From a virus: DNA of 64,000 nt. How positions within the stretch are numbered: position 1 is the stretch's first letter; every line of letters begins with the position of its first letter. Positions 6,754 through 64,000 of the stretch are shown here, piece after piece. The notes below the pieces were generated by a model, which saw only the letters and a list, made by a program, of their open reading frames with translations, ran no database searches and had not been told where the DNA came from. Position numbers and translations under genes: made by a program. The DNA is taken from IMG/VR virus record IMGVR_UViG_3300045988_159113. The stretch is one strand, 5' to 3'.

Positions 6754-7434
6754 ATGGGAGATAAAGCAAAGAAAGTAAGAACGAGCATGGCGTCAAGAGG
6801 CCCAAGCTCAAGGTGTAATACTAAACAGTGCGCATAGTTTTCAAATGGTGAATTGAGAGATGCCGGTTTTAAAGTTTACGGTAATGCTTGGAATTTATCC
6901 GGAACAAAAGACGTTATCAATGGATATAGAGAAACAGGCGGCTCAAATGATAAACCATTCAATGAGGCAGAATACAACAAAATGAATGCACAAGCTGCCA
7001 AGTATATATATGATAATCTAAATACTCAAGACTTAGATACCAACAAAGTCTATACTGTGAACATGTTTCACCCTTCAAGTACATTCAAAAAGCGAGCATA
7101 TGATGAAAGCCGAAGAAGAACGTATGGCACACATACAGGTATATTGTCGTATGATCCAGGAACACAAGGTGGACACGGAGCTAGCAAATGGTATGTGACA
7201 CATAATGAAGGCGGACATGTGAAGAGAGAGCCATTTTCTACTATGCAATATTCTGGGAAAAATGGAATTCCAACAACTGGGTCATATGTCACACAGATAT
7301 CAGAACCTCTTGAAAATAGAAATATTTTTGAAAGATTCCTTGACAAATTGAGAAGTATGATTGGATTATATGAAAATGGTGGTAAGATATAGAAAAGAAT
7401 AATTCGTAGGAATTTTTTATATGATTATAAATAA
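6754..7434 (+). CDS. papain-fold (CHAP/NlpC-P60-like) putative cell-wall hydrolase; needs TAG readthrough
   Basis: ATG at 6754. There is an in-frame TAG at 6835..6837 inside CNTKQCA[TAG]FSNGELRDAGF, a Cys-motif typical of CHAP/NlpC enzymes. A His motif GTHTGIL lies downstream. The TAG at 7390..7392 would be read through to TAA at 7432..7434, just before the terminator hairpin. Confidence 0.55.
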
Positions 7435-7438
7435 GAAA

Positions 7439-7476
7439 AGGACAAGTAGGAGAATATCCTATTTGTCCTTTTTTTT
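7439..7476. terminator. bidirectional terminator between the convergent arms
   Basis: AAGGACAAGTAGGA pairs with TCCTATTTGTCCTT (14 bp, one G-U pair), loop GAATA. A T8 run follows on the + side and a T-rich tract follows on the - side. Confidence 0.7.
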
Positions 7477-10400
7477 ACTTTTCTCTTTCGTTTCTAAAAA
7501 CGTCTGGTTTGATAGCATCAAATGCTGGCTTGAATTGTCGAGATGCAGAGAATGTATTGATACATCCATCCCAGAAATCTTCATCACCAGTTGCAATTTT
7601 TAACCAATTAGATACCTGTTTCCCAGTCCATTCAAATGCAAATGGCGTCCAGTTTGTGATTGGTGTACCGATTGAATCCATGAAATTAAAATCAAAAGAT
7701 GCATTCCTTAATGAAGCAATTGCAATATTAGCTGCAGACAAACCAAGTCCTGCCATAAAATCATCAGATTTTTTGTTTTCATTCATGGCATCTTTCAACC
7801 ATTCTCTAAGAAATCCTGAGATAATAGTTCCAAATAATATCCACATCATCAAATCTGTTGTGATCTGTTTGATGTTAGATCTGAAACGTTCGCGTACATC
7901 CTTGTTGGAATTATACCACATTGAAGAAAAACCTTCTTGAATAGATCCTGTGTCATACATTGACTTTGCCATTGTAGATAACTGAAGCATCACTCCTTCT
8001 CTCCAATCTCCTACCCATTTGTATACAGGATATCCCGTGTCTTCTGTTACTGGTTCAAGATCACGACGTACATTGTTATCTTTATCAACTTGATAGTATA
8101 ATTTTTCACCTGTCTCTGGTTTTTCTATCTATTTATAGTGTCCTTGCAAAGTAACGCCACCAGGAGCAAGGAATAAGTTTTTCTTACCAGACCAATACGT
8201 CCTGAATTGCATCCACATTGAGCCAATAAGAGTTGACTATATCAATGATTTTTTTTCATGGGAATAATATCCGTAGATATTATCCGCTAAAGATTTCATG
8301 CTCTCTGCTTGTTTATTTGTATAAGCTCTAGGTAGTGGTTTGAATTTCCCTGGCTCACGTACCCATGGATTTCCATTTTCATCTTTAACTCCTTCAAGTT
8401 CAAACTACTCAGCCATTACGTCATACAGCGCTTTTTGGTGCTTGTACATTGGATCCGATGTGTGCCCGTTTACTAACAAAGTGAATCGCTTATCTGCTTT
8501 GAAATCATATTTCAATACACCATCAACTAATTTGTGAGCATCAAGACATCCGTCAGCTTCCATCTATGACCCAAAGATAATGCAACGATTATAGTAATCA
8601 GGACGAGAAGAAAACTTCATCAAGAAATTTGTAAAGTTATGAATTCCAAATCTGTCTGATTTAATCTTGTCACCATATGTGTTCATATCCATATCATTCA
8701 ATCCATATAATTCATTGATTTTCATAAATAATGTTGGATGAGATGAATCTCTAAACATATCTGCATACACTAATTTTGCAGCTTTAGTCATATTATGAAA
8801 TGTGAATGATTGATTTCCATCTGGCTATGTAATAAACAAACGAATATCTGTGAATAATCCCTGTAACATCTGATAGAAAAACTACACCGGAGATAACGCC
8901 AAAGTAGCTAGAGATGCAGCATAACGCAATGAAGTCAATTTCTCAGCCACACCTTGGTATCTTGGATCAATAATAGATTGGTTGAAAATTTTATTCATCA
9001 CATACTCTTTCAGGTACTGCCTATCATTTTTAAAACCAGAAGGATCATTTTGTAATGCAGCAGACATTGTTAAATGAATCATTGCTGCTTTAATCATTGG
9101 GAAAACACTATCCATATTTTCTTTCATAGAATATGCAAGATCGTGTTTTATTACCAATGTCTCAAGGTTATGCTCTATGTTAGCAATGCCACCCATATCA
9201 GCGATTCGTTTAATTCTATCAGGACTTTCGTCATTAGCAACGTTGAATCGGTTGATCATCTGGTAGAAATTTTCATTTGCCTATTGCTGTTTTAAATCTT
9301 TACTAGCTTCAAATACACCTTCAGCTTTCATTCTCGCCTATTCCCATGCATACTTAGGATTTAAATATCTGAATATTTCTTTGATATTAGATAATAAGCC
9401 CTTTTGAGAATGTTTTGAACTTTCTGATGCAACTTCAAGGGGAACACGAAAATATCGAATATCATGTTCATCTCTCATCTTTTGAAGTTCAGATTCTGTA
9501 TAATTACTATACCTGTTGTGATTTATCTCATTCAATACAAATTCAAGAAAATCGCGCTCTTCCTAAGTATCTAATGTGCTAGGATCAACAAAAACAAAAT
9601 CTCCGTCTGGAGTGTGTTGCGTCATGTTCACATATAGATCTGTTTGGTTTCCCAACGTGTGAGTTTGTAAACTTCCAAATCCCTTTGCCTTTTTAAGGTT
9701 TTCAACAAGCTTGCTTATCTTGATCATCTTACGTTGCATATCATCTCGAGTTAGCTGATATGCTTGTGTGACCATTTTAGTAATAGTATTTAGAGTTTCA
9801 CTTGAAAGATTTCCAGGGTTATCTGTATATGTTCCAGATATTCCTTTTGTTAATATATTCGTACTTTCTAACCATTTAGAATGATCCCTGAGCTATTGTC
9901 TGAATTTGATTCCTCTTTTATCTGCTAAAGCAATAATAACCTGATTATATAACTGCATATGTTTCTTTTGTAAATTTGAATCTTTTACACTTTCTGTATC
10001 AGCAGCAAAATCATTTTCAAGCCTTTTTCTTAATTTTTCAAGTTCTCGAATTTGTTGCTCTGGGTTTTCAATTGCGTCATAAAAAGAACTGAGCGCATCT
10101 GTATATCCTGCAAATTGATAAATTTCTCCTTTGAAATTACTTGCTTTTCCTTCCTACATTATACTCTTAAAAGTATTAAATGCAAGCTGATATTTTGATG
10201 CAAGTTGTATATTCCCATTTTTAAAATTATCAACTTCAATTGGATCAATATCATTCAATGCTTTCCAGTTGTACGCAAGCTCTTCATTGGATAATGCTAT
10301 ACCATAAGCTGATCCTGGATTCATTACTTCGATACCTGTAACTTTTACATCACCAACGTCACCAAGAGCATTCAACAATAGCATTGTTTCTATGATTTCA

Positions 10401-12268
10401 ATATTACCAATTGTTGCTTCAGCAATAAGAGAGTCAGCTTGAGACTAAAAATACACATCATCTCGTCCAATACCAGCGCAAAGGTTTTTCATAATGCCAA
10501 AATTCTTTCCTTTATTACCCTCTGCTTCCTAGAAAGTCTTTGCATTATACAAGCCATAGTCAAGATTTTGTGTGGAAATTCTTTTGATATCCAATTCATT
10601 TGTTATAACATTACGCAACATGATAACACCAAACTACTCGGCTGCATCGCAATCAACAACTTTCCATTGCTTATTGCAATACTTTGCAAATCGCTCTTTG
10701 AACCAAGTTGCAGATAATCCGTGATGATTTGCTGATGCACTTGGGAATTTTACTTCTGATGTTTCATTTTCAATTCCCTCTTTTAATGCTGCAACAGTTG
10801 CATCATATTTTATCATTCGAAGGTTTCTGTCATCTTCAATGTATTTCTTAACCTAAGCCATCAGCGTTGCTTCTGCATCAGGTCCGGCTTTAACAACAAA
10901 AGTCTTTCCAGAACCTCCTCCATATGTATATGAAAGGTTGCCATCTTTATTTGGAGTGAATCCACCAGCTTCGTTTATTTTATCTCTTAGCCATTTGTCG
11001 TCAACCTTTCTTCTATCTGAATATGTGGGAAATAATCTTGCCATTCTATCTTTTACCTTTGTTAGAATCTGATCTGCTGGTATTGATATGCTATATTTGA
11101 ATGGTAAAATTTCATTCAAGTTTGCTTGTGTCCTTTCATTAGTTAACTATACAGTGATATCTTTCAATCCCTCAGTTTTACAATTTTCAAATGAGAATTT
11201 GTCTGTTGTTTCATCTAAATGAAAGCCATCCATCTGAATAGGTAAAACATAAGCCTTCTTGTCTTTCATGCGCAAGCCTAAATCGGACAACATTCTTTGA
11301 TATAAACCAATCTGATGAAACACTGTAATTTGTTTTGCGCTTGAATAATCAGAGAAAGCGTGAATAGATGTTTTGTAATCCACAATGTGCGTTTGTCCGT
11401 GTTTATCAATAACTACCAAGTCAGCAATACCATAGAGTTGTTGTGTGCATTTTGATGCGCCAATATGCGATTTAGCAGTCAAAGGCATCTCGGTGTAAAA
11501 TGTCAATGGACCCTACAACGAACTATTCAACTAATCATAGAATGTTTTTGCAATATCAATAACCTATGAAATCTAATCTAAAGATATACGTTCTGCATTC
11601 TCCGGTTTTAACATTCCATGTATCTTGCGACGGTCTGCATCTGAATTTGCGCCTAATGTCTACAGCCTTATCTTATATTCTTCGCTCTCGCCAGATACTT
11701 TCTAAAATAACAGTTGCAAAACTTCATGGATAGCAGTTCCGGTATACGCTTGTTCTTTCCATTTCCTTGTTATTCTTTTCCTGTAATCTTTGAATGTCGC
11801 ATCATCTCCTTTTGCTAATTTATGAGTTGTGCCATCATCTCCTGGACCAAACAAGTATTCAGCAACATCTTTTGAATATTCACCTTTTTCGAATTTTTCA
11901 CGAAGATTTTTCCACAGATTATCAGAATTGAATTCAGGGACCATATGATCTCCATTGATATTTCGAACAGCACCTAGAAATTTATTCACACCAGTATAAG
12001 GAGCAACTTCGCCATTCAGAAGGTTTCCATCATCATCGAATTCAGCCCTATTTGAATGCATGAACTCATTCATCTTTTTACGCAATTTGGATGTCTCTTC
12101 ACCATGTTTTTTTATCAGTTCATCCGCCTTTATTTGCTGTTCGCTAATACTGAAAACAAGATCTTTGTATTTAGCATACAGCTCACCTTTCTACATCAAA
12201 AAATCTTCAAGTTCAAGTTCAGATGTGAAAGGATTAATTCTTCCTTTTATATAATATACACAAGCCAT
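7475..12268 (-). CDS. 1597-aa giant protein with N-terminal RecB/Cas4-type PD-(D/E)xK nuclease domain and C-terminal hydrophobic segments
   Basis: One frame runs from ATG 12266..12268 (GGAGG about 10 nt upstream; TAATG overlap with the upstream gene) to TAA 7475..7477. It contains 23 in-frame TAGs and no TAA/TGA (hand-scanned). Motifs: GTAIHE, IADLVVID, IVDYKT, QIGLY. Confidence 0.8.
11300..11740 (-). other. PD-(D/E)xK nuclease core motifs
   Basis: GTAIHEVLQ (11723..11740), D in IADLVVID (11420..11422), DYK (11372..11380) and QxxxY in QIGLYQ (about 11300). The core is interrupted by six in-frame TAGs. Confidence 0.65.
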
Positions 12269-13341
12269 TAGTCACACACCTCCTTTAATTGTCCAGATTT
12301 AAGCATTGCTGATTTCATATTGTTCAATTTTCTATGTATAGAACTATCTTCTAATGGAAAAGAATTCACTGATGTCATCTTTGATGAATTGACTAAATCA
12401 GCAATTTGTTTCAATGAATATTTCCCAATATCCTATAGTTTAAGATCTCGTATTCCAAAAGAGCCTTCTAGCATTGTATCTATCATTCTATTAACCTAAA
12501 ATTGAACTTGATATGCAATATCAGGATCTATAGAATCAAATACAGATTTCTGGCCAGTTATAAATTTAGAGTATTCAGTCACAAAGATTTCTTCATTTAT
12601 ATCATTCCTTGATCTGTTAGGATATGTGCGCGCCATTTTCTCATAATTAGGAAGCTATTCGGATAAAGATATGAGTTGCATATAAAGATCAGGCTTTGCA
12701 AACCTTAGCTATCCAATAAGCATGTGAGACAATTCATGTATAGGAGAATCAACAGAATAGTTGTTCATGTTTATATATATCTACCCATTTAGAATGAATG
12801 CTTTTGGATTTGGATCTACTGCTATCACATCTTTAAACATTGGATCATTATGCAAATCATGCAAGTATACCTATTTGAAATGTATACCATACAAAGTTGC
12901 AAGTTTTCCAAATGCTGTATCAAGTATAATTTTAGAATTAACTTCCTCGTCAGGCTTGTATCTAACTTCAAAATTATTGTTGTATTTACTTGGACGGTGT
13001 GATATATTAACAATTGATGTTTTATTTAAAGGTAAAATATCAAATTCCAAATCATTATATGTATCTTGAGTATTTAATAATACAACAGCCTCATCAACAG
13101 TGTCAACCTGAAATTTATCTGTCAATTTAGATGTTTCTGTTGTATTGTTTTCTCGCAGCTCTAAAAATTCACGAGCATGCTCAGTAGTATCAGATCCATC
13201 TATTTCTGCTGGAGTCGGCCATCTGCCATTATGCTTGTCAGCATAGTCGATTATTTCTGCTTCAAGAAATAAATCAGAGAGACCGGTCCTCTCACTCAAG
13301 GACCGGTACTCATAACTTTTTTTATTTATACATGCATTCAT
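12268..13341 (-). CDS. 357-aa zincin-like (HExxH) metallopeptidase
   Basis: ATG 13339..13341 lies 2 nt after the TGA of the upstream gene. It ends at TAA 12268..12270 and has six in-frame TAGs. The motif SPIHELSHMLIG places HELSH at 12724..12738. Confidence 0.7.
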
Positions 13342-13343
13342 TT

Positions 13344-16300
13344 TCAACAACCATTTTGTTTTTTCTTTTCTTGGGCTTTTATTACTTTAATTAGTGTATC
13401 TCTACTAATTGTTGCCGTCTTTTTATTTCTGCTTATTATGATCGGATTATTTCTTCCTTTTAACTGTTCAGCTGGAATTTTACGAACTCCATCAGAGAAT
13501 TCAATTTCAAAAGAACTCAATTTTCCTGCATTAAATTGTACAGAAATCCTTGGATAGTATTTTCGTTTTTTGCCATCTTCCTATTGTTCTATTTCTTCGT
13601 CTGGACGTTTTCCAAGTTCAATTAATCTTCTACTATCGCCTATTTCTTCAAGATTAATATTCTCAGAATCATTTTCTGGTTTATTCATATCTATTTTTTT
13701 CTTGTCAAACGTCAGCTTCTTTTCTCCATTTTCATATGTAATCTTTACAGCGCCATAACCAAAAGTGTATGATGATTCCATTACATCATTACGATTTCTG
13801 ACATCATAAATTTTGTGATAACCATATTTGTCTTGATCTGCGGCATAAATAATGATGAGATCTTCGCCATTTGGACCTGTGAATTTTACACGACTTGATT
13901 TTTGTAAAGAACCAGTTCTGAAGTACTAGGTATCAACTTTGGACCTTATTTCTTCAAAATTAGAATCATACCAATTTGCCCTTCTGATTTCTTCCGTGTA
14001 TTCGAAATCATATGGTACATCGTAATATTCATCTTCATCGTAGTAACTGTTTCCTTTTTTAGAAAAAGCATCCATATTTCTCAATGTTGTCCATTCTCCA
14101 GTATGCGGATTGCGCTTTCTAACATATCCACTGTTTGCTGTCTTTGCACTAAAAATAGGAACAACATAAGGAAGAACATCTTCCACTTTTATGTCAGCTG
14201 TATTGTACCCAACAGTGTAGCGATCGCCATGTTTATCTGCTTCAGCAATGAATTTCTCAAGTTCAGAGATTATTCTTGAATTAGAAGCATCAACCAATTT
14301 TGTGAAAGTATTTTCACCTAAATTTCTGCGCTAGGCAATTATATTATAATATGCAAAAATATCATGTATAGGAATACCTCCATATGCAACAGTGCTCAAT
14401 CTCATGTATGCATTGACATATTTGTCAAATATGTGCTAATCTATTTTCTCTCTTGGAGATAGATTGATTGTCGGAATAGAGTAGTACAACTCTTCATTAT
14501 GTGAAACCGTTTTGTTTGACGATACAACACCAAGACCTGCAACAAACTCATTTCCTGAGAATTGTGCTTTCAAATATGGGATAACATCCTATTCAACCCA
14601 AGCTCTAAACGATGCATTGTTGATATCAGAACCAAGTACCAACTCAATATCACCTTCCGTCTATATAGAATTGCCATCCTAATCAAAAACGGTTCCACCT
14701 TTTGGAATCTTGAACTTCTAGTTCTTTGAAACAAGGAACTCATCAAGCATAAGATCATCATAGAATCGCCTCAATCCTTTAATTATATCTGTATCAGATA
14801 CAGATGATAATTTTAATTGAGTCTTTACTTTTTTGTAATTATCCAATCCAAAGCGATACTTTGCAGATCTCAAACTTGCTCTAGTGGAAACTGTCAATGC
14901 CTTCAAGAATCCGTAGACATCCTCTTTCCCGAAAATGATTGCGAGAGAATTGAATGCAACTTTTTTGTTTTCAAAATCTTTGATTGCTTTATCTCTTGCT
15001 TCTTTATTGAAAACAAACTGTTCCAGATCGATAGCATTATCAACACCAAGCATTTCTTCAAGAGAAATCAGCATTCTATCTGACGAAATTTCTTCGTTTT
15101 TAAGACCTTGGTTCAAACTCAGAATCTGACCAAGAGTTTTCATCTCTTGTGCTCCTTCGAAAAGTTTTTTGAAATCTTTGAACTCTTCTTTATGTGCATT
15201 AATCACTTCTGCTTGAGTCACGTATGTGATTAACTCATCAATAGCATAGCAAACTTTTGCACTGAAATCTGTACGTCCAGCTCCTTTTCGTGCTTCTATA
15301 TATTTAGCTTTTAGTTCATTCAAGGAAGCGATTTTTTTCTCAGGTGTATCATCTTGATTTTTAGACATTACAGCTTTTTTCAATATTTCTTCACCTCCCG
15401 CTAACTGACATAACTCTTGATATACAGTTTTCTTTGTTCTCTCTCCATTTTGAGACATGAAGTTGTATTTGCGTTTCAAATAATCCCATGGTCCTTGTTC
15501 TAAATAACTAAATACACCAAATAACGTATTGAAAGAATCAGTTTGATCCGTGAAACTGTTTGCTTGCAAAATCTATATGGCAAGATCTCCAACTGGTCCC
15601 ATTATGATCTTTGTAAGTGTATCAACTGGAACTCCAATCGTTACACCAAAGATATACATACCTAATGTTGCAGGATTTGCATTCAGCTTGTTCAAGCTCA
15701 AATCCTTGGCATTATCCACAGATAAACTCAATAATGCACTGACAGCAAGAGCAGGATCATTCTATGCTCCTGCATCAAGCAATTTTCTCAGCAATTGAGC
15801 ATTTAGTGTATTTGGAGATTTTGGTCTTACGTCAGAAGGCAGGCCATAATGTCTCCCGTTTATTGTTATATTAAAATACAGAGAATTTTGTCTTGGGTCT
15901 TGATCTGAATTCATTATCAAATCATAGTAGTACTATATAGCAGACAATGCTTTCAATCCAACAGCAGCAATAGAAATACAATCCTTACCAACTTGGTTCT
16001 CAACAATACCATTTGCTTTTAATGTTACAGAACCAGGTTGTCTGTATTCAATATCGTTTTTCTTAGATGTATCTGCAATTTCATTCCATTCATCCTTACA
16101 ACTATCAATAGGCGTTCTTGATTCAATCATATTCGCAGGATCTTTTGATACTTCTATCATGGATGATATCGTGATATTGTTTGCAATCTATCTTTGTACA
16201 TGCGGAGATTTGATCCTTCTCAAATACAAATTGTGTTTATTGAAAATATACAGTAATGAATTATTGAACTTTTTAATTAGCTCTTCATCAGAAATACCTC

Positions 16301-47447: not shown

Positions 47448-47454
47448 TTAAACT

Positions 47455-47887: not shown

Positions 47888-47974
47888 ATTTGTTGTTAAG
47901 TTTAATTAAACGTTTCGAGAATTAACGCAACAATTATAGTATTAAATTATCACATTATATGAATTACTTTTTAA

Positions 47975-48107: not shown

Positions 48108-48111
48108 CGAA

Positions 48112-51098: not shown

Positions 51099-51495
51099 GA
51101 TAATATGCCAAATAAAAATATTTTTTCTTTATATAATCACCATTTAATTCTCGCCTGGCCTGTGCAAACATCTCATAATAGTTGGGAATTTCCACCATAT
51201 CCTGCAACTCTTCGAGTTCCATTTCTCGTATGGCTTCCATTTCCACATTCTCGAGTTGTTCTTTTGTAAGCTATGCATCGTGATATTTGGATCTCATATC
51301 AAACGCTGGGGCGTTCTCTTTTATGAATTGTTTGTATTTATACATCACGATCATCATTTCGATAGAGATCCCAAGCGCAGACTCAAACCCATAATACATA
51401 TAACACGGAAGATCCACATAGTGGAATTGTACGGGGTCTCTCCATATGAAAAATTTTTTCTTTAGATTGACCCCGTATTTTATGCTTCTTTTCAT
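50989..51495 (-). CDS. 168-aa hypothetical protein
   Basis: ATG 51493..51495 (ATGA overlap upstream), one TAG at 51271, TGA at 50989. The last 110 nt overlap the next gene in a purine-rich tract, so the true 3' end is uncertain. Confidence 0.5.
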
Positions 51496-52676
51496 ACTTT
51501 GATCTGCTTAATCAACCCGACGCGGTCGTCGGTGTTCTCCATCATCTCTTCAGCGATAAGCTTACCGGCTTCAATAGCAAACTCTTGTTTCTCTTGTGCG
51601 TCATCGCTCTCGTTATACTTATCGCGCAGTTTCTCTACTTTCTCTGTGAGATCAGCGGAAAGGATCCATTCAGAATGTTCTATCTCTGCCACCTATTCCA
51701 CTTGCTACCCATCTTTTGCTATCGTCACGACGGGGATGCCCTTATGTGTTATTTCACCTTTAAGGTCATCCCTCACCTCTTCGATATGGTGTTTGTCTTT
51801 ATGGAGTGCACCCTCTGGCAAAAGAGACATCTGCCCTCCATTCTGGAACATATCGATCGTGTCAATGACTGGCACGTATTCTATCGGTTCCTGTTTTGCG
51901 TGTTGCTTCCTGTGATTATATGCCACACGGTGAGCTATCTAATACTAAGATGGCAATATTCCGCCTTTCTTAGCACTCATCGGCATAGCCGACCAATCCG
52001 TACCATTCATCATATTTTGATATTGCTGGTTATTCATATCTTGCTGATTGGCTAATGCATCCATCAGCATTTTGTTTTGGTTCATTATAGATGCCATGTT
52101 GTTTTGTAGTCTTCCAGCTGCTGCCATCTCATCATTTGCTCGGCCTAATGCTTTCCTACTAAACAGGCCATATTTCTTTCCTGACTTCTCTGCTGCATCC
52201 ATAACATCATCGGCAGCTCCTGAATAAGAATCACCACCAAGTGCCAAGGTCTAGGTGTCAGCTTCCATAGTGTCGGATTTCTTAGCTCCTAAAGCATTGA
52301 TGAGCCCGAAAGGAGTAAGAGCCATAAATGACGAATCCAAGAACGCATCAGTCTTTGTCATTCCCGAAGTCCCGACTCCCATAGAATGCAAGGCTTTTGC
52401 CCCCAATGCTCCGAGCTTCATAATACCGCCAGCCATTGGGTTAATCTAACCGACAGCATCAGCAACGCCATTGTATCCTGCATCTAGTCCTGCGGACAGA
52501 TTGCCATATCTTCCTTGGTAGTTATCAGGTTCAGGGAACAAACCACCTAGTGCATTTGCAGCATTGCCTACTGTTCCCCAGATGGCACCAGGAGAAGCTG
52601 CTGTTTGTTTTAGTCCATCGCTTCCTTTACCGGTACTTACGACTCTACCGCTTGCTGCGTTATTTTCTGTACTCAT
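51492..52676 (-). CDS. 394-aa virion-module protein
   Basis: ATG 52674..52676 (ATGA overlap upstream) to TGA 51492..51494. Six in-frame TAGs at 52446, 52251, 51945, 51939, 51705 and 51693. The frame was hand-scanned and has no other stops. Confidence 0.75.
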
Positions 52677-55600
52677 GATGCGCTTTTATTGTATAATGTC
52701 AAGACACCACCAACCACTGCAAGCTCATCGCCTGTATAACGGATGCGGATCTTGATATATTTATCCTTTAATTTCATCTCTTTCCTATCGCTCCACTTCT
52801 CGAAGCTTACATCTTCTGTATTATATGTTGTGCCAAATTTATCATTCAGTATATCCAAATCAAAATCGGTAGCCTTAGCATCGTCTGGTATTGGGTTATT
52901 CCCTAGGTTGATGATAGGTTTACCGGTAAATGGGCGATCAACATATTCATTTTTCTGCATGTATGTTATCGATGGAATCTGAACGTACCAGCAATCTTCT
53001 TTGTAGTGCATATTTCCACGTATTCGACCCTCTTTCTTCATATCGACACCTTTAACATGACACCATATCCTGAACTCGTTAAGGAGTTCGTTATACACAA
53101 TTTCAGATCCTGAGAGGTTCTAATAATCAAATCCTGTTTTCTTCATCAGCTAGTAGTAGCTCTCAACATCATTTGCGTCGTGAATCCTTCGATAGTATAA
53201 GGGGAACATTGTAGATTTGGATATATTCGCGCCTACATTAAGTGCAAGCTTTGGCGTTATATGTGTAAAGTCTGGGTTGTATTTGATGCGTGAACCAAGG
53301 CACAGGTTATATAGCGCTTTTGTTATTTCTTGCCTATAGTACATGTTTGGTTTATCATTGCCTAGATCATAACATTCACCGATCACTTCATAATGGAATG
53401 ATTCAGGCGCCGCTTTATTGCTTAGTATCCTCAGATCGTTGAAGATTTTGTGAACACTTGCATCTTTACGTACTACAAACTCAAATTCGAATGGATGCTG
53501 TGTGCCATACCAGAACGTGGGTTTGATAGTCTCCTCTGTCATAACAGCGTCGGACTGCCCATGTTTCCATAGGAAATGTGTAGTTCCTCCATCGTGTATA
53601 TTGGAATGATCTAATCCCAAGATGTGCCTGTTGACTTGATGGTCGAGGGTTATCATACAGTTCCCGATGTTCCCTGATATTGCAGGAAGCCAAGAATAGA
53701 ACGTCTGCCATCCTCCACCTTTCGTTGCTCCGTGCAAATTATAGCATAAGCTCCACATGGTATCATCACAATAAGCGGTAAAGATCACGTCGCCTTTAAA
53801 CATGTTATAGTGGGATTTGATATTCACTTTGCCAATGTCTGGATTCATTCCATCCATTGGCAACGCATCATTGAGGAATGACTGAATCCTAAAATCTGAG
53901 ATCATCTAAACGGTTGATCCATCACATGCCCAGATTTTCTTGGCGTTCGAATCAACACCAAAGACTCCGTAAGGTGTAGATATAACACTCTCAGGCCATG
54001 TAGATCCGAAATCTTCAGATAATATTTTCGGAGTTTCCGGCAACACGTTTGAGGTGTTGATATATACGAATCCACCGGCTCCCTCTCCTGCAAGTGCTCG
54101 CTCATTGACTGGTACCAACATGATACCATGCTCGCATACTACCAATAGATAACTTGCCAATGATACGATTTTTGTAATTGCTCCGTATTGATCGGTGTAA
54201 TCTCTATAATGATTGGCAAGGAAAACACGGTTTCCATTTTCAAAGTTCCCGTTTACAAGGATATTTGAATATTGGATTCTGTTTTTGTAGTAGTTATTCT
54301 CCCAGATATAGTTGTTTTGATTGAAGTGTAGCCTATCACCTCCTGACTTACTGAATCCCTCGTTGTAGTTATCGGATTCTCTTAACTTATAAGATCCGGA
54401 TGGGTCTATACTGTGCAATGGGTAGAACGACCTAGCATTTCCACTATGTGCCTTTTCATCTGTCCATGCTTCATTTGTGCTTCTTATGCATATATTCCTC
54501 GATGATCTACACGGGAAAGTAACCCATGAGCCCATCTGCACAGCATTCATATCGCCAAGGTTTACATCAAGGGCAACGTCTGGATTCTTAGTTAAATCAA
54601 AGCTTCTGTATTCAATCGAGAATAGCTTATTCAAAGCATTTGTGAAACACATTCCCTAAAGGATCGTGTCATTATATGGAGCGGATGAGTCATTGAAGTT
54701 TCTATTTACTCTGTGAGTATACCATCCAATGAAACAATCGCCACGGTAGCAATCAATATCTCTTGTGCTTATATCCTGACTGTCTGATATTCTATAATAC
54801 TGGCGTCTGTCGTTGAAGCGAGTGGTAAAATATCCGCCCATATTGTCTTCGCTGTATCCTGGAATATATAAGTTAACGATCTTATTAGCTATGTCTTGAC
54901 CTTTAGATTTACCGTTTTCTTCTGTATATGGATAAAGTCCGACATATGAACCATATAATCCTCTCATCAGGTTATATGGCTTTTGCATCGAGAGCCTACC
55001 CATCTTGTCGGTCGGAGTATATGATAAGTCAGGTCTTACCTACGCAAGGAATTTGGCACCAGCAAAACTGAATGTCTTAGTCGTCACATCTCCGGCTTTA
55101 GCAGAGAAGAACACATTGTCGTCGTGTCTTATAGAGTTCTCTTTTACTATCGCCTTTTTATGTAAGATTGTACCGAGAGACATTCCCTCTTCAATACTCA
55201 AACCGAAAGATTTGAAGAATTTAGATGTGCTGATATCTGTGTTGTTATATTGATATAATCTTTGAACGTTGCTTTGTAAATAAGCGCTCGATGTTATTGT
55301 TTTTGCGACTAGCTCCTAACCTGTGAAAATATTATTGTAATATGGCATATTAAGTTCATAATCCGGGCAGAACATAGCAAAGCTGTTATTCTCCATCGGG
55401 TTATAGATATAGGCCATATTGCCATAGTTTCCATTTTCCTTTTTCTTAGGATAGTCATATTTTCCGTTGTATGTGCTGATATCGAACTCGTAACCACTCA
55501 TGGTTCCATCTGTAACCAAAGTGCCAGCCTGAGATCTTGCATTGACTACTCTATCGCGTATTCTCTCAGCATAGCTATTTTTGGCTGAGTCAATATTTTC

Positions 55601-58600
55601 AATATCATCAGCACCTATCGCATAGTCTTGGAATTCGTACCATATACCGTCCAGTTTGACAAGCAGATTTTGGTATGGCGTGGCTGGTATAGTCCCGTCT
55701 TTATTCATCTGACCGTTTACATGGAAAGTAACAGATGGATATTCTTCGTCTTTTTTCAGTAGATCATTCGAATAAGCACACGGTGAACTTGTCTCCACAT
55801 TATAACCTCTGCCATCTGTGGATATTCCATAAATGGAAACGTTGAGACTATACTTGTTTTTTGTTATAGATGCCGATATGGCAGAACCTTCTGCGTACTG
55901 GTAGATGATATCCCCGTTTTTATAAGTGGTAGGATTCAAGAGTGTCATATCGTTTTCACTGTATACCTACTCTACAAATTCGAGATTTTCCTAATTATAA
56001 GAGTCAGCGAATCCAGCCTCTCCATATTCAAGACCCTTGAGCCTGTATTTATTGTACCTTGCATCTCCACTTCCTGTGCTCCATGTGTTATCTACGCCAT
56101 ACTTCATAGGTTCATCACACGCAATAGTGCAGAGCTAGAGTTCCTTTCCCTTCGAGTCGTCGAAAATCTTAAACTCTCCCTTCTTATCATACTGAATTCT
56201 TATTGGTGTCATAGAATCCTCTATGATTACATCAGTTGCCAAGCACTGAGCCAGCGCGTAGTACCACTCATAAGCCGGCAATTTATTGCCGCCTATGTTT
56301 TTTATGGTTCTCTTGCTGTCGTAGAAGTGCTGAAAATATGAAGTGTAGATGTTCTGCTGTTTTACATCTTTCGCCCAATTGAAAGTGTTATGGTCAGATG
56401 TTGTAGATGGAAATATGGGGATATCTGTTGTATTCCCTAAGTGGATTATTTTATCCTATAGTCCGTGTTCGTCTATTTCTTTTTCAGCCAAGAAAACACC
56501 ACCAAGTCTACACTCATTATTTCCTGCTGTGCTTCTACCGTTTAAGGTTATCATGCAGTATTGCTAGCCTGCGGAATTTTGATATCTGTAATTAAAGACT
56601 GCCAGTTTCCTTTTTTCCCAACCATCATAGATGCAGTTGCCCATCATCGAGATATCCTGGTTGAGTTCTTGCTGCCACATGACCGTTATGGCACGGCTAC
56701 TGTCGCTGTCTAACTTGTCAAAGAATGCGAGGACTTTATCAGGTAATGAGAACAGTCTCTGATAGTATCCATTGAGAAGTACGCCCTGGCTTCCTATTTT
56801 CTGAGGGTAAAAGTTGGGGTAGTCTTCGCGCCACTATGCATCCATAAACTGGAACCCTGCGCTGCAAAATGACTCGTACATATGATACGGCATTTTGACT
56901 TTCACATTCATCCCTCCAACATTTACATCCACCTCTTGCTCAACATTTATACTTGGAAGGAAAGACTCCTCGCATATATTCGTCGCGTATCCCTAAGCAA
57001 TAAGTGTAGGAATTCGTTTCTGCCTTACGAAAAAGTACCCTTTGTAATTTTCCGCATTTGGCATTTTCTGTGTAAAAGAGAAATGAACACCAACAACTTG
57101 CATAAGGTCAGAGATGACCGATTCATTGATGCGACAGACACCTTTGATATTGTAAGGGTAGGCTTCACTGTATATATCACTAAAACTTACGTTATCTTTA
57201 GATGTACCAGATGTACAGTATGGCTTACTCTCTTCGAGTTCGATATTCTCAAAGTTGATAATTGGAAGATCACCCTTTGTTTTCATATTGTTCACTCCGA
57301 GCACATCGAAAACAGAAGTGAAAGAGTTGTCTTTTCTTATATATACAATGCCAAAACGGTAGATCTCGCCAGGATGATATCCTGTGAACTTGTACGTGAA
57401 ATCACTGTTGTAATATGAATTATTTTCTCCCTCGTATGAGTAATCACTAGCCATATTGACTTTTTTATCCACTACTGCATACGGAATAATAGAGAGGCTG
57501 TAATTCTTCAGTTTCTCGTATTCTTTATTTTCCTGATTTTCCTATGTAAGGTTAGCCTAAAACAAGATGTTGCTAACCATAGCCTGAGATTTTACTTTAT
57601 CGGCGTTGAAATACTAGACATTGATATCGTTGGTTGTTATCTGTTGCGTGTTCTCGAAGCCAGTGATAAAAATATCTGTCTTGTCATCTTCAACGTAAAA
57701 CACATCGTCTATTTTATATGCTGACGTTATAAGGTTCTCATTATTGGCAGAGCTTGCCCTAGTGTAGCATATCTTGATATATTTAATGTTATCAGTGCCA
57801 ATAAGTCGAAGCTTGACGGATTTATCAGTTCGCATATTCTCCGATCCTCCGTTTATACTGAAAGGGTCGCCATCTGTTCCGATAAAGACAGGAATAACTC
57901 CGGACTCAGCTATTATATCTGACTCGTTGCCGTCTTTATCACAAGCGATAGCATAGAAAACATAATTTCCCACCATCAGCTTACCATCTGTACCAAGTCC
58001 AAGGTATGCAAAATTGACAATCTTATCCGTGTCATTATACAAAGAGGTGCTGATATCAAAAGCTGTCTCATCATATAACGGATGCCTGTTTGTGTTATTT
58101 TTGCCGAAACGGTCGATAATGTGATAAGTTCCGTCTTCCTATACAGCAAAGCCTGTGTTTATTATTCTCGGCTTATTCTTATTGTCTGTAAGTATCAAGT
58201 TGATACTTCCGTCGTAGCTATTGTCAACGTTAATCTCTACGGGATGCTATAAATCAAAACGGAAATATTCAGTACGGAGAGGATAGCCTGTCTCATCTCC
58301 GTCTTTGTCAATCTTTCCAACATGAAGAGGTTGATATTTATTGACGAGTTTATTTTTTGGACTGTCATAATCAGGAGATGGGAAAGATCCAATTTCTCCT
58401 ATCCCGTCTTTCGTAACGCTTACAATATACATAATGCGCCCGAAAGTCTTAGCTCCAATAGGTATAGCTCCATCAGGGAGCTTTGCATACTAGACGTTGT
58501 TGTCCTCGTCTCTGTATGTAATCTTGGCATTACCCATATCATTTTGGAGCAGCTGCTCGTTGCCGTTGAATGTCGACATTGTGGCATTCAAAGCATCAGT

Positions 58601-58678
58601 GAGGATATTATCGGGAACCGTTCCGACGTTGTAGTCCATAACGATCCCACCCTCGAATGTGTTCTGGGCGTATTCCAT
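52673..58678 (-). CDS. 2001-aa tail-like structural protein (the last 141-157 aa could be a separate product if the TAG at 53150 terminates)
   Basis: ATG 58676..58678 to TGA 52673..52675. It has 19 in-frame TAGs and no TAA/TGA (hand-scanned). The sequence is beta-rich and Asn/Gly/Tyr-rich, typical of tail or receptor-binding proteins. Confidence 0.7.
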
Positions 58679-58691
58679 ATTTTATTTTTTT

Positions 58692-59318
58692 TTAAAAATG
58701 TTTATGCCTCAAACCAAAACGTACGCATAGATTGCGGTATTCGATAATCATTCGCCGCCTGGTTGTTTTTGGCCTGTACAATATCAATTGAAAACGTGAG
58801 ATATGAAGTTTGAAATTCCACCATACGATCCTATGCTGAGTGAAGCACTTAGGCATTTCTACACGGAAAATTCGTTTTGACTAGTGCGTGCTTATGATAC
58901 ACTCCTCAAGTATTCTATACAATGTGATCTTCCCAAAATCAAACTGTGTCCTGAGATGGCACCTTCGTTGGTTCATGTATTTCTTGTACTTGGTAGTTCC
59001 CAAAGCGAAATAATAGTAGCACGGCTCATTGTCATCCTGTTTTTTAGCGTATCGATAATATAAAGTTCTGATCTTTTTTATTAATTTCTGCCTGTAATAT
59101 GACTCATATGCTTTTTCTGTCTGTTGCACTGGGCCTATTACTATAGGATGATTGTATGCCTTCTCCTACACTATCACATCGTGCCCTTTTGATATTGTCC
59201 TTGCTATCGCAGACATACCAAACGATAATATATTCATCAGGTCTCTTTCTGATAGCAGTTTGTTTTTCCTTCTTACTCTTTTGACTGTATTATATACTTG
59301 CCTGTATTTCATGATCAT
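58692..59318 (-). CDS. possible 208-aa very basic Arg/Lys/Tyr-rich protein
   Basis: This is the only long frame in the 610-nt gap. It runs from ATG 59316..59318 to TAA 58692..58694 with TAGs at 59166 and 58881. The composition is odd and it overlaps the upstream gene by 29 nt. Confidence 0.3.
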
Positions 59319-59772
59319 AGGTCATTCCTTCATTCAACAATTCTGCTAAAAGCTTATCGGTATCGTCGTCGAGTGTTATAATCTTCTCGAATGTCCTTGT
59401 CCCTGATTCGACATAAAAAAATGGGTAGTATGCAGTCATGGCACATTGTGCAATATCCACATCTTTGAAATATCCTTTTCGCGCCATCTCGTTAAACTGC
59501 TCGCCTTTGAATCGTTTCATGTATATTGTGATCTTGTAAGATCCAAAACGTCCAACGAACATATTCCCGGTCATCATCACCTCTTTGACTATGTTATAGA
59601 ACATATTTTGAAAAAGATTTCTGACATATCCTCCCGGATCATTAATTCCTGCAAGCTTGAGTCCGACGCCTCCTAGGATTGTTTTATCTTCCCATTTCTT
59701 AGCTATCTCATCAAGATCGAAAGCGTAACCGTAAGCGTTCCTATTATGGCAAGCTTTCCCGTGGTTCTTCAT
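59290..59772 (-). CDS. 160-aa hypothetical (head-tail region)
   Basis: Complete ATG-to-TAA ORF with no TAG. ATGA overlap with the upstream gene. Confidence 0.65.
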   Translation of the reverse strand: MKNHGKACHNRNAYGYAFDLDEIAKKWEDKTILGGVGLKLAGINDPGGYVRNLFQNMFYNIVKEVMMTGNMFVGRFGSYKITIYMKRFKGEQFNEMARKGYFKDVDIAQCAMTAYYPFFYVESGTRTFEKIITLDDDTDKLLAELLNEGMTYDHEIQASI

Positions 59773-60464
59773 TTCGTCGTCGGTTTATACGATTTACCGT
59801 ACAGTTTACGATTCCAGTTTGTCTTTGCGTCAAGTATCGTATCCATCATGTTCTGGTCTATCTGCTGCGGTACTCGTGCATGATCGCATTTAATCAGCCA
59901 CATCTGCCTTAACTGATTCGCAATTTCCAGTAGGTTTGCATTCATGGTCGTTATGCCTTCTTTGTATTTAGTGACATATGAGACATAAACAGCCAAAGCG
60001 TCGACCTCATTATCCGTAAGGTATGGCAAACCGTCATCATCGAGTTCCTGGCCTTCGTATAAGATATCAACTTCAGGATAGGGAAATTCAAAATATAACT
60101 TTTCACCAATCCGTGTATAATGTATCAGCTTACCTTTTGCATATGTTGGATCATGAAATATTTTCATAGCTTCAGTGTACGATTCCGTGAACATACTAGC
60201 AACATCTCCGTTGCTGTTTATTCCGTCGACGTTCTTGTAGTCTTCCATCGGGATCGTTACAGCTTCTATATTTTCAACATTGCATGGCAATTCTACACTG
60301 TTATCTTCTTTGTTAACAGGCAAAACGATATGATAATATCTAACGTTTTGGTTGCCTATGTCATGGTAGCCAATAAGTGCGAGTTCTTCAAACTCGCTCT
60401 CGTCTGTAAATTCTACGCCATACAACAGGTGCGCCTGGTACATGGCTTCCTTAAAATTTCTCAT
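59769..60464 (-). CDS. 231-aa hypothetical (head-tail region)
   Basis: Complete ATG-to-TGA ORF with no TAG. TAATG junction with the upstream gene. Confidence 0.65.
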   Translation of the reverse strand: MRNFKEAMYQAHLLYGVEFTDESEFEELALIGYHDIGNQNVRYYHIVLPVNKEDNSVELPCNVENIEAVTIPMEDYKNVDGINSNGDVASMFTESYTEAMKIFHDPTYAKGKLIHYTRIGEKLYFEFPYPEVDILYEGQELDDDGLPYLTDNEVDALAVYVSYVTKYKEGITTMNANLLEIANQLRQMWLIKCDHARVPQQIDQNMMDTILDAKTNWNRKLYGKSYKPTTK

Positions 60465-61150
60465 TATCCTTCAGCGTATGCCTGATTGTTCGGTAAAATC
60501 TGAGTCTTCATCTGTCTGTAAATGTTAACTTTCTACTGAACAATTCGTTTTTGTATTTCTTCATCTATCCAAGAGTACTGATTGGCCAGGTCTTCATTGC
60601 AGCATCCAAGTTCTTCCACCTGTCTCAAGTCTTTGAACATTGCGACCATCGTGATCGTCTTCATAAGTGGAGCATTGAAAACGTAGCAGTCATACATGCC
60701 GTTTTCGTTTGGTGTTGTATCAATGAAGATATACGGCTTGTTTTTTCCTCTTCTCTTGTATTTATGGTACAGACTCCACTATGCAATGCTTGTGTAAACC
60801 TCAAATGGATTCTGTCTGTCAGGGCTTCCAACATAAGCTATCGACTTGATCCCGAAATCAGTGATGATTTGCGGAATCTCGAAATGCATGATAAGTTCGC
60901 CCTTCTTCTTATTGCTGCAAATAGGGCATCGTTCGATGTCCTTACAGTCGATGTTGATACAGTTAATAGACAGCAATAAATCACGACTAGGCAATACTCC
61001 GTTCATCTGGTATTCCTTAATAACTTTTAGCCTTGTCTGTACTATCTCATCCTCTATCTGTTCAATAGTCAAAGACATATTAGCGTGAGCACCGCGAAGT
61101 CCTGAGATTATGTCGTTCTGTATCCTTGATGCTAGCTTGTCGTAAATCAT
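60464..61150 (-). CDS. 228-aa hypothetical (head-tail region)
   Basis: ATG 61148..61150 to TAA 60464..60466, with TAGs at 60779 and 60533. The track shows only the first 123 aa. Confidence 0.65.
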
Positions 61151-61154
61151 GATA

Positions 61155-61193
61155 TAAAAACAAAAAAGCGGAAGGCGTTGTTGCGCCCTCCGC
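61155..61193 (-). terminator. rho-independent terminator after the candidate capsid gene
   Basis: On the - strand RNA, GCGGAGGGCG-CAACAA-CGCCUUCCGC forms a 10-bp stem with one G-U pair, followed by UUUUUUGUUUUU. Confidence 0.8.
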
Positions 61194-61224
61194 CTAAAAC
61201 TTAAATTTTACGTTTATTAGAGAA

Positions 61225-62223
61225 TCAATCCTTCTTCTTTGCCTTCACTACGGGCTCGTGTGTATAGTCAGCGGTAGTATAAGCTACTACGTTGCCATCT
61301 ACCTTCTTAGCAAGAGCTACCTCAAAGTTGCTGGCCTCATCGGTACCAACAAAAGCCTTGATGAACTTCTCTTCTGCTACGTCTGCGGGAACCCAGAATA
61401 CGTGGGTTGTCTCGCTGGTTACTTGCTGACCAACAGCACCCATACCACCAACATGACCGCGGTGTACGGTGTAGTGGATGGTGATCTGATCGTACAGAAC
61501 ACCTGGACGGGGCATCTCGTCTGCCTGAGGACGCTTCCAGCGAAGGTTGGCAGCAGTGGGAAGGCGATAATCCTTCTCGAGATTCTCGAAGGTACCGAAG
61601 CCCTCAGCGCCAGTGTAAACGCCAGACTCCTTGAGGTCAGAGATTACATCCCAGCCGCCATTCTCGTTCTCCTGCTCCAGAACAGCCTTGGTGATGCGCA
61701 TGTACTCGTTAGCACATACAATAGCCTTTGCAGTCTTAGCATCGGCTGTGGGCTCTGCGTCAGCAGCTGTTACGGTGCTCTTCAGACCCTCAGCAGTAAG
61801 CTTTGCGGAGAGATCTGCAGCTGTAGGAATCAAAATCTGATGGTCGAAAGTAACGTTCAGGTACTTGTTCAGATTCTTGATAAGTGTAGCCTTAACGTCG
61901 TCCGTCTGCTCAGAGTGGAACTCTACAAATACGGGACGGCCCTTGTGAACCAAATCATTGGCAAACATGGGGTCAGCATTACCGATAGATGTGATGTAAA
62001 GAGCGAGACGGTAGTTCTCAGTGCCAAGCTGGGGCAGAGAATCCAAGTTCAGAACATCAAGGTAGCCCTCGTGGCCCTTAGACCAGTAAAGGCAGATGTG
62101 ATGGTTAGCATCGTTGCGATATACACCCTGACGGTAAATCTCAACCTGCTTGTTAGCCTTGTCAGCGACAATCTTCTTGTAAAGGTCGCCATTCCAAAGA
62201 GTGGTACTAGTAAATTCGTACAT
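61225..62223 (-). CDS. 332-aa abundant structural protein, candidate major capsid protein
   Basis: Complete ATG-to-TGA ORF at about 50% GC with G/C-ending codons, in contrast to neighbours at about 30%. It has no TAG codon and a dedicated strong terminator. It sits upstream of the head-tail and tail genes. No family motif was recognised by eye. Confidence 0.45.
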   Translation of the reverse strand: MYEFTSTTLWNGDLYKKIVADKANKQVEIYRQGVYRNDANHHICLYWSKGHEGYLDVLNLDSLPQLGTENYRLALYITSIGNADPMFANDLVHKGRPVFVEFHSEQTDDVKATLIKNLNKYLNVTFDHQILIPTAADLSAKLTAEGLKSTVTAADAEPTADAKTAKAIVCANEYMRITKAVLEQENENGGWDVISDLKESGVYTGAEGFGTFENLEKDYRLPTAANLRWKRPQADEMPRPGVLYDQITIHYTVHRGHVGGMGAVGQQVTSETTHVFWVPADVAEEKFIKAFVGTDEASNFEVALAKKVDGNVVAYTTADYTHEPVVKAKKKD

Positions 62224-62286
62224 AGTTTTTTGTGTTTTGTGGTTGTCTCTACAACCGTTAAAAATATGATCTGAGAATTAATAATC

Positions 62287-62664
62287 TTATGACTACGTAG
62301 CGGCAGGACTAGCTATACTCTACGAAACAGCCGCATGAGTTTGCAATCGCTGGTCACTAGCATTTTCCATTATCAGATGCACGATCTCGTTAACTATCTC
62401 ATTACATCCGTAATCTGGAAATTCCAAGACTTGCGATGTATCGATCTAGCTGTCAAGTTCGTCCTGTGTTAATCTTATAGTTTGTGGTGTCTTTAAATAA
62501 TCGACAACCACAGAATCCAGTTTGTATATTCGATCGTCGCCATATCGGATTTCCATCCGTGGCTTGCTGGCATTACCAAAACGATAGCCTGCTTGACGGT
62601 CAACCGTACTTGCGGAATCTGATCCGTACTGGACAGTACGGGGAAAAGAAACAATCTATCCCAT
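62287..62664 (-). CDS. 125-aa protein invisible in the standard-code track
   Basis: ATG 62662..62664 (in-frame TAA at 62689 upstream) to TAA 62287..62289. Four TAGs at 62656, 62446, 62320 and 62293 cut it into pieces shorter than 60 aa. The translation is protein-like: ...RLTQDELDSQIDTSQVLEFPDYGCNEIVNEIVHLIMENASDQRLQTH.... Confidence 0.6.
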
Positions 62665-62696
62665 ACGGCAACAATTATAGTATTTTTTTTATTAAA

Positions 62697-64000
62697 TTAA
62701 AGTCCAGGATTAAATTTATCATAAGAATCCGGAAGTGTTGAATTTCCGACTGTTGAAATAATTTCTCCCTCTTGCTTTAAACATCTTATAATATTCTCGC
62801 TTATCCAGAACATCCCGAAATAGTAGCTATTAGAAGACGAAGCTGTTAAGTCATTTAAAACCTTCTAGTCCTCTATGGTTAAAGAATGAGGAACAAATGA
62901 GATGTCAAAATTACTATTCGTGTAATCTGTCGTAGCATCAGCTCCTGGCTAATAATCACCGAAGCCACCAGTCGTTACGCGGACCATGTCGTAGAACGTT
63001 TCGATTTTTCCATATTTATTTTCTTTGTCATATCGTCTATTTGGCAAGACTGTGAAAATATAAGTGTTGTTATTTGGGTCAGTTTTGTCTTCGTCTTTTA
63101 TATTAACACCCCACATGTTGAAATACTTATCTATAGACTCAACAGCCATGCTATGCCTTAAAAGATCAGAATAGCTGATTCTCAAATCAACATTAAATTC
63201 GTCATATTTAGTCATTGCCGTCGTATCGTAAGCCAAACTACCACGCAAAAATACACCACCGCCGCATTTCAAATTGACGCATCTGATTCTTACGTTAGTC
63301 GTTCTATATTGATTGACAAACCTGATATACTGGCTGACATCGTCGGTAGTAGTTAATCCTCGACTACTGAATGTATCCTAAATAACTAATCCAGATTCTC
63401 CATTACTCCATGGCTATTGTTTGTAAAGATAGGCTGGCATATCTATGACTAACGACTCGTTATTTTGGTTTGCTTCCCTTGTGTCATAAATCAAAACATT
63501 CGGGCCGTACTTTGTAAAATTGAAGTAATACCAAACATTTCCGCTTGAGTCTGTGCTCTTTTCCAAATCAACTACGTTGATTCTTACCTCGCTCGTACTA
63601 GTAGCTAACCCGTTAATCTTAGAGTCAACACCGCTACAAACAACGCGTCCGTCGGCATATACTTTAAACGCTGCATTTTTGCCAACTGTACCGCCAGCAG
63701 CTCCTCCAACTCCTGTTTTCTTACCATCTATCATTTGGTAATCTCCAACCCAAAGTACCAAATTGTCTTCTTTTGTTCCAGGTTCTTTGAATGTTTCTGA
63801 CTCGCTATCACACATACCGCCGATATATCCATTTTGAACATTTCCGTCATACTTTAGTAGTATCTCACGTGCAGATATACCGTTTGTATCTATAGCGTTT
63901 GCTATCATTGTCTCGGTAATAAGTGCGCCAAACTGGTCGGCTTGTTGCCAATATCCACCACTAGTTTTCGGGTTCTCTCCCATACTATTCGCCTTTGCCT
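62697..64000 (-). CDS. virion structural protein, 5' partial (frame open to the window end)
   Basis: TAA at 62697..62699. In-frame TAGs at 63414, 63378, 62949 and 62865. The frame is still open upstream of the ATG at 63983. Composition is Gly/Asn/Thr-rich. Confidence 0.65.

Follow-up and report, generated by a model that had tools for sequence, protein, structure and literature searches.

The window analysed here is the whole 64,000-nucleotide stretch of the IMG/VR virus record IMGVR_UViG_3300045988_159113, which comes from a crAss-like phage. In its late genes TAG is a sense codon, and it stands for glutamine (Gln, Q). Very probably, the complete genome is that of a gut phage of about 197 kb with two coding regimes, early genes that are readable in the standard code and late genes in which TAG is Gln. 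The TAG-to-Gln recoding is correct here and needed for annotation, and it is already known. Yutin et al. (2021, PMC7886860) described its confinement to late genes in crAss-like phages, proteomics has confirmed TAG recoding in such phages (Peters et al. 2022, PMC9523058), and Borges et al. (2021, bioRxiv 10.1101/2021.08.26.457843) proposed a model for the timing of late genes and lysis. An earlier sequence-only reading of the window had rightly connected it to the code 15 known from crAss-like phages (PMC7886860, PMC9523058, bioRxiv 10.1101/2021.08.26.457843).

TAG is a sense codon in the late genes

The 19 minus-strand genes in 7475..64000 contain 206 in-frame TAG codons, and no TAA or TGA, in 18,712 codons; the two off-frames of the same DNA contain 428-703 TAA and 445-1092 TGA each. 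At the off-frame density of 4.7% per codon, the chance of a 5063-codon frame free of TAA and TGA is e^-242. A six-frame scan with only TAA and TGA as stops returns minus-strand open reading frames (ORFs) of 5068, 3380, 2280, 2002 and 1598 codons. The longest of these spans 15,207 nt, compared with 1458 nt in the standard code, and when TGA or TAA is instead taken as sense the longest ORF is still 1458 nt. In the comparison of coding density that the sequence-only reading had proposed, 99.1% of 7475..64000 is coding with TAG as sense versus 54% with the standard code, the latter figure counting true-frame pieces that start at ATG and reach 60 aa or more. The standard code breaks the late arm into 225 fragments whose median length is 55 aa. 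No frameshift is found over 15.2 kb of the late frame, and Pfam domains run across the TAGs. Among the Gln codons of the late arm, 206 are TAG (24%), 247 CAG and 402 CAA.

Most of what the sequence-only reading had claimed about these frames was recovered. It had reported about 200 in-frame TAGs with no TAA or TGA, and its gene boundaries and per-gene counts are reproduced exactly, at 66, 36, 23, 19, 18, 15, 6 and 6. The TAATG, ATGA and TGACATATG junctions that it listed are all present, and its pair of consecutive TAGs at 22179..22184 is in frame. The TAGs that it placed inside conserved domains are also there: seven within the Pfam match of the superfamily 1 (SF1) helicase, six within the PDDEXK_1 match, one in DUF192 and one in the alcohol dehydrogenase (ADH), which it had put at 49060, see Table 1. 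Two of its statements hold in part. TAG was said to occur across the whole late arm, which is true for most genes, but g7, g14, g15 and g17 lack it entirely. The interval 6754-64000 was described as a leftward arm, which is right from 7475 onwards; the gene at 6754..7434 is instead on the plus strand. The interval begins at 6754 because this plus-strand gene is also recoded, with two in-frame TAGs.

TAG stands for glutamine

The identity of the inserted residue rests on three independent lines of evidence. The first is codon exchange with close relatives, for which every codon of the window was aligned to six IMG/VR contigs from human-gut assemblies that are about 85-98% identical; the exchange statistics use 3-5 relatives in this identity range. 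TAG is conserved in all relatives, which are independent assemblies from other samples, at 169 of the 206 sites. At the 103 variable sites the partner codon is CAG 66 times and CAA 11 times, while all others together account for 26, the next commonest being GAG (8) and GAA (5). TGG, which is also a single transition from TAG, pairs with it only once. Counted by distinct sites, where the window has TAG the relative has CAG (23), CAA (6), GAA (3), GAG (2), TAT (2) or one of six singletons, and where a relative has TAG the window has CAG (43), GAG (6), CAA (5), TAT (2), GAA (2) or one of eight singletons. CAG is replaced by TAG in 69 codon-by-relative comparisons and by CAA in 44. A change from TAG to CAG is seen in 6.5% of the comparisons for TAG. 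The synonymous change from CAA to CAG has the same rate (6.5%), while TAT to CAT, likewise T to C but altering the amino acid, lies about 30-fold lower (0.2%). In its drift TAG thus behaves like a synonymous codon for Gln. The late genes of the aligned relatives contain no in-frame TAA or TGA.

The ADH domain of g8 provides the second line. Its single TAG aligns to the invariant Q of the motif IGG(I/M)xETQE(M)xDF in all four of the best solved structures, 3two, 1uuf (YahK), 5z0c and 6k3g, whose E-values range from 3e-84 to 2.5e-59.

The third line is a comparison with MT835470.1, a 117-kb GenBank record from human faeces in which the standard code holds throughout. Its genes are collinear with those of the late arm, with matches for 17 of the 19 late genes (g1 to g18 except g8 and g10), and the alignments to its proteins continue across the TAGs. 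At the 96 TAG sites that are aligned to a residue of MT835470.1, Q is the commonest (15% versus a background of 3.9%), followed by K and E at 11% each. With substitution rows estimated from these same alignments, Q is the maximum-likelihood residue for TAG, ahead of K by 10.9 and of E by 11.2 log units. Individual conserved contexts show the same, such as DDV[TAG]FVVE in the DUF192 domain of g9 (TAG at 50304..50306) opposite EDDVQFVLE, RIPA[TAG] opposite RIPAQ and DINV[TAG]Y opposite DINIQY. The assignment of TAG to Gln in the sequence-only reading is thus borne out by the CAG and CAA partners at 77 of 103 variable sites, by the ADH glutamine and by the likelihood against MT835470.1.

Early genes remain compatible with the standard code

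The 14 early genes of the window have no in-frame TAG in 2030 codons, 49 of which encode Gln. At the late-arm share 11.8 TAGs would be expected (P = 1.4e-6 for none). These genes stop at TAA (8), TGA (4) or TAG (2), and downstream of the two TAG stops, at 5346 and 6656, an in-frame TGA comes after 2 and 6 codons, respectively. In sister contigs the early genes extend about 60 kb further left, and the late genes go on to the right of the window. In all, 5 of the approximately 90 early genes of the lineage stop at TAG. For these five, an in-frame TAA or TGA follows 1-13 codons on, with a median of 4 (one of them at position 10892 of the relative locus L116). The median distance to the next stop is 9 codons after TGA and 12.5 after TAA versus 4 after TAG, a sample too small to draw on.

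The early operon ends at a strong terminator-like hairpin, and the recoded gene 6754..7434 sits behind it on the same strand. Recoding thus follows transcription units and not simply the strand. In the relative L006, another CAG of this gene is swapped for TAG. Its product has a Cys-containing N-terminus and no match in Pfam or PHROG, and no homologues were detected outside the lineage. An AlphaFold model of 6838..7389 has a predicted local distance difference test (pLDDT) score of 36 and is unusable. That the product is a lysis enzyme was a guess, and it found no support.

Public gene calls for the sister contigs already translate TAG as Q (P0223, P0154). The code-15 call P0154 (L116 10001-10909) extends an early gene past its TAG stop (...FENIP[TAG]ITCL), and the TAG that it overruns is probably a genuine early-gene stop. 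Code 15 is thus applied to whole contigs, and used in this way it mis-annotates dual-coded phages.

How UAG might be decoded

From published work on recoded phages, we suggest that early in infection the late genes would not be translatable to full length, and that later a phage-directed change of decoding would let ribosomes insert Gln at UAG. The likeliest agent would be a phage tRNA with anticodon CUA, charged by the glutaminyl-tRNA synthetase (GlnRS) of the host and expressed before the late genes. A lower share of termination by release factor 1 (RF1) could possibly help, and release factor 2 (RF2) alone could then serve every late-gene stop.

The statement in the sequence-only reading that no suppressor tRNA is visible in the window was upheld, as neither ARAGORN nor Rfam at its gathering score finds a tRNA there. 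ARAGORN was run with default settings, with introns allowed and with a relaxed threshold, and a positive control worked. The search was carried beyond the window by a walk through near-identical or related contigs (at least 80% protein identity), from about 187 kb round to 146 kb in the coordinates of ORRO01000007, whose 197,477 bp match the window at 53,011..117,010; the two outermost steps on the left use relatives at 80-96% protein identity. Rfam was applied at the gathering score to the window and six walk loci, and at E <= 1 only to six loci at the two outer ends of the walk, and neither run found a tRNA. Relaxed ARAGORN matches fell in unrelated contigs bearing NrdD and are probably false. 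By comparison with MT835470.1, the other roughly 41 kb should contain TerL, the portal, the rest of the tail fibres and the place where the two arms meet. MT835470.1 itself contains no tRNA. Among the best 120 of 2653 homologues of its TerL none comes from this lineage, and the two TerL loci examined belong to standard-code relatives, with no tRNA in either.

It is possible, though somewhat unlikely, that the complete genome of about 197 kb encodes no recognisable tRNA and that Gln is inserted efficiently at over 200 UAG codons by a mechanism not yet described. The candidates may then include a non-canonical suppressor RNA, a tRNA(Gln) of the host that the phage causes to be edited or modified, or near-cognate decoding together with an inactivated RF1. 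Were the genome free of tRNA, this abundant lineage would be a clean system for finding the missing 'code-switch' machinery.

Alternative explanations

Several observations weigh against a two-code phage in which TAG is Gln. Neither the window nor the roughly 156 of about 197 kb (about 79%) covered through the sister contigs yielded a tRNA of any kind, and no release-factor or GlnRS domain was found among the proteins scanned, which are a subset of all proteins. For this phage the Gln assignment comes from comparisons of DNA and translated sequence. Further, Q is found in MT835470.1 opposite 15% of the TAG sites versus 27% of the ordinary Q codons. TAG therefore prefers weakly constrained positions, and this weakens the test with the distant relative. 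The missing tRNA would also agree with TAG still being a stop that is passed by inefficient, programmed read-through to attenuate expression, and the early genes of the same genome do stop at TAG. However, read-through of 90% per site would give only 0.1%, 2% and 9% of full-length product for genes with 66, 36 and 23 TAGs, and conserved virion proteins, the muzzle protein among them, are affected. To read a gene with 66 TAGs, decoding has to be near fully efficient, so this is reassignment rather than leaky read-through. Sites that serve attenuation should stay conserved instead of drifting, but TAG swaps freely with CAG, as a synonymous codon does, and we consider read-through very unlikely. 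Less likely again is that TAG is sense and encodes another residue (Glu, Lys, Tyr, Trp, Leu, Ser or pyrrolysine). Some sites do pair TAG with GAG or GAA (13), TAT (4) and TCG or TCA, and K and E each make up 11% in MT835470.1. These minor partners reflect the usual substitutions of Gln, as ordinary Q codons face Q in 27%, E in 10% and K in 9%. The predominance of CAG and CAA, the near absence of TGG, the lead of about 11 log units that Q has over K and E and the invariant ADH glutamine all speak for Gln.

A host that itself reads TAG as Gln, with the phage mirroring its code and no switch, would need no phage tRNA, consistent with the scanned 79% of the genome. Yet in that case the absence of in-frame TAG from the early genes would be hard to account for (P = 1.4e-6), and 5 of about 90 early genes end at TAG, as in a host where TAG terminates. 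The relative MT835470.1 has the standard code throughout, and we know of no bacterium that reads TAG as Gln. A host with this code ranks as more improbable still, and published surveys predict standard-code hosts (bioRxiv 10.1101/2021.08.26.457843). Lastly, the 225 short fragments that the standard code yields might suggest decaying pseudogenes, or TAGs that are sequencing or assembly artefacts, and this we regard as negligible. Only one stop codon of the three occurs, the 15.2 kb without frameshift do not fit decay, homology and domains carry on across the TAGs, and no in-frame TAA or TGA or indels are seen in the relatives. The invariance of 169 of 206 TAGs between independent assemblies, in a lineage abundant enough to be represented by many contigs of 193-199 kb, is hard to reconcile with artefacts. 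The sequence-only reading had likewise argued against pseudogene decay, and TAG as the sole interruption, the invariant sites and the relatives without in-frame TAA or TGA sustain it. Reassignment of TAG to Gln in the late genes is consequently the reading followed below.

Late genes and other features

The features of the window, together with two gene types from relatives' loci, are collected in Table 1.

Table 1. Positions of genes, domains and hairpins. Positions refer to the window unless a relative's locus is named.
Feature	Position	Strand	Description
14 early genes	265..6658	+	HNH endonuclease, protease-like, two phosphoesterases, others; compatible with the standard code
Intrinsic-terminator-like hairpin	6665..6710	+	20-bp stem, T10 tail; ends early operon
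Recoded small gene	6754..7434	+	226 aa; in-frame TAG at 6835 and 7390; stop TAA
Hairpin	7433..7475	.	lies where the 6754..7434 gene and g1 converge, between their stops
g1	7475..12268	-	1597 aa, 23 TAG, stop TAA; collinear homologue in MT835470.1
g1, PD-(D/E)xK nuclease domain	11198..11755	-	aa 172-357; 6 TAG inside; PDDEXK_1 32.8 bits (gathering score 22)
g2	12268..13341	-	357 aa, 6 TAG (43% of its Gln codons)
g3	13344..28535	-	5063 aa, 66 TAG
g3, DYDID (DxDxD) motif	16707..16721	-	single copy, aa 3939
g3, SF1 helicase	19005..20264	-	Pfam AAA_19/AAA_30 and UvrD_C_2; 7 TAG inside
g3, TAG-TAG pair	22179..22184	-	in frame
g4	28546..38685	-	3379 aa, 36 TAG; homologue is a 2970-aa protein of MT835470.1
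g5	38689..40608	-	639 aa, 15 TAG (13 with a later ATG), two within the first 9 codons
g6	40605..47447	-	2280 aa, 18 TAG
g7	47516..47887	-	123 aa, rich in Gln/Gly/Pro/Ala; 17 CAG, 0 CAA, 0 TAG
g8	48112..49986	-	624 aa; Zn-dependent ADH at aa 5-356; single TAG at 49060..49062
g9	49986..51098	-	370 aa, 3 TAG; DUF192 at 50250..50528
g11	51492..52676	-	394 aa, 6 TAG
g12	52673..58678	-	2001 aa, 19 TAG; muzzle protein, crAss_MUZ 42.7 bits (gathering score 27)
g13-g19, virion genes	58692..63998	-	2, 0, 0, 2, 0, 4 and 4 TAG
g19	end of the g13-g19 block	-	C-terminal part of a fibre-like protein of about 1323 aa
OrfB_IS605-type and RVT_1 genes	L113 14620-15849; L117 17758-18993; L119 18188-19423		relatives' loci

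The crAss-like affiliation is seen in the muzzle protein g12 and in the PD-(D/E)xK nuclease of g1, which are both above the gathering scores; g12 also matches crAss_MUZ_C, weakly. The adjacent g15 and g16 match CrAss_Ring_1 (22.7 bits) and CrAss_Ring_2 (18.5 bits), both weakly and below the gathering score of 27.

In g3 a single ORF joins an SF1 (UvrD/RecD-like) helicase to the DxDxD motif, while the counterparts in MT835470.1 are split over at least two proteins (2281 and 991 aa). The DYDID motif, which would correspond to the DxDxD motif of RNA polymerases, sits in the block that is best conserved with MT835470.1, at 46.6% identity, and a comparison of the DxDxD region with solved RNA polymerase structures gave no sequence match. 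The g8 gene contributes a complete Zn-dependent ADH to the block of virion genes. Its best solved match is 3two, a 'mannitol dehydrogenase' (E = 3e-84), and its 270-aa C-terminal extension, rich in Lys, Asp and Trp, matches no family.

The four TAG-free late genes lie within 47516-47887, 59290-60464 and 61225-62223 on the minus strand. Their ratios of CAG to CAA are 17:0 in g7, 7:1 in g15, 9:1 in g17 and 2:2 in g14, while the giant genes favour CAA. This suggests that codon choice is tied to expression within the recoded arm, and the strong preference for CAG in g7, g15 and g17 would fit highly expressed structural proteins.

The phage lineage

Sister contigs of 193-199 kb come from independent human-gut assemblies (ORRO01000007, OLXI01000008 and OLWK01000011), and sisters from ERZ assemblies have 197,356, 197,365 and 198,839 bp. 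Because several independent contigs fall in this range, the genome is about 197 kb, and the idea of a genome of about 142 kb with the 197-kb contig as a concatemer was dropped. A megablast search of 44000..64000 against GenBank phage records gave no match. With tblastn, g17 and g15 find only MT835470.1 and MT835492.1 among these records, at 31-48% identity. MT835470.1 is an unannotated record named 'UNVERIFIED: Bacteriophage sp.', in which the portal gene occupies 101.2-103.4 kb and TerL 103.6-105.9 kb.

The left, early arm of the sister contigs carries NrdD, a primase-like gene and a sigma-70-like gene. NrdD was tried as a family marker and rejected, as it is widespread in unrelated phages and its 78 loci are uninformative on this family. 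The early arm also holds a tandem array of about 10 divergent paralogues of 300-345 aa, 25-35% identical (L113 538-12054; L116 10001-20535), and in one relative an OrfB_IS605/Cas12f1-like_TNB-type gene. The region of the capsid gene, about 1-10 kb to the right of position 64000 (L001 1100-3284; L100 7519-13282), is interrupted by at least four group I introns, which exceed the gathering score of RF00028 at 52-74 bits and come with ORFs for GIY-YIG/NUMOD-type endonucleases. The ORFs of this intron-split region are without TAG, unlike their neighbours. In standard-code relatives the block downstream of the portal has an RVT_1 reverse transcriptase, possibly part of a diversity-generating retroelement, and a few kb further on comes a gene that faintly matches a fibre repeat.

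Comparison with known systems

For annotation the consequences are large. The standard code loses nearly half of the late arm and fragments proteins of 5063, 3379, 2280, 2001 and 1597 aa. Comparison with the standard-code sister MT835470.1 shows a change of code between phages that are not far apart in evolution. The decoding of UAG is the point of wider interest, as no tRNA was seen in four fifths of the genome.

The phage shows no difference in kind from the crAss-like phages with code 15. As in those phages, in-frame TAG is confined to structural, transcription and late genes and stands for Gln, the early and replication genes can be read in the standard code, and the code differs between close relatives, MT835470.1 being the standard-code one here. 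The failure to detect a suppressor tRNA is also sometimes shared: recoding and suppressor tRNAs agree imperfectly (Yutin et al., PMC7886860), and of the phage genomes with TAG recoding only 40% had a detected TAG suppressor (bioRxiv 10.1101/2021.08.26.457843). However, the code-15 exemplars backed by proteomics carry annotated suppressor tRNAs, and here no tRNA at all was seen in about 156 kb. The genome is also about twice as large as the crAss-like phages of about 105 kb in Borges et al. From the same study, Lak megaphages, Agate, Garnet, Amethyst and Topaz share TAG as Gln in structural and lysis genes and a proposed code switch, although these lineages are unrelated to this phage. Lak and Agate encode RF2 and suppressor tRNAs; neither is seen here, in about 156 kb for tRNA and among the scanned proteins for release factors.

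The Zeta group (Yutin et al. 2021) likewise combines a human-gut origin with a very large genome, with published sizes of 145-192 kb, and the roughly 197 kb found here are slightly above these. The likeness to this group rests on gene content, introns and genome size, while TerL, the portal and the major capsid protein lie outside the window. A PD-(D/E)xK nuclease and a rich set of genes for nucleotide metabolism and replication (NrdD, primase-like) are shared, and the giant g3 protein with its DxDxD motif would correspond to the giant multidomain proteins of the 'transcription block'. In the group as here, several group I introns that carry endonuclease ORFs divide the major-capsid region, and recoded stops are absent from it. 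The use of TAG, TGA or the standard code also varies by branch in the Zeta group, and the phage described here joins the known cases as one more very large crAss-like lineage whose late genes would be held back by a different code.

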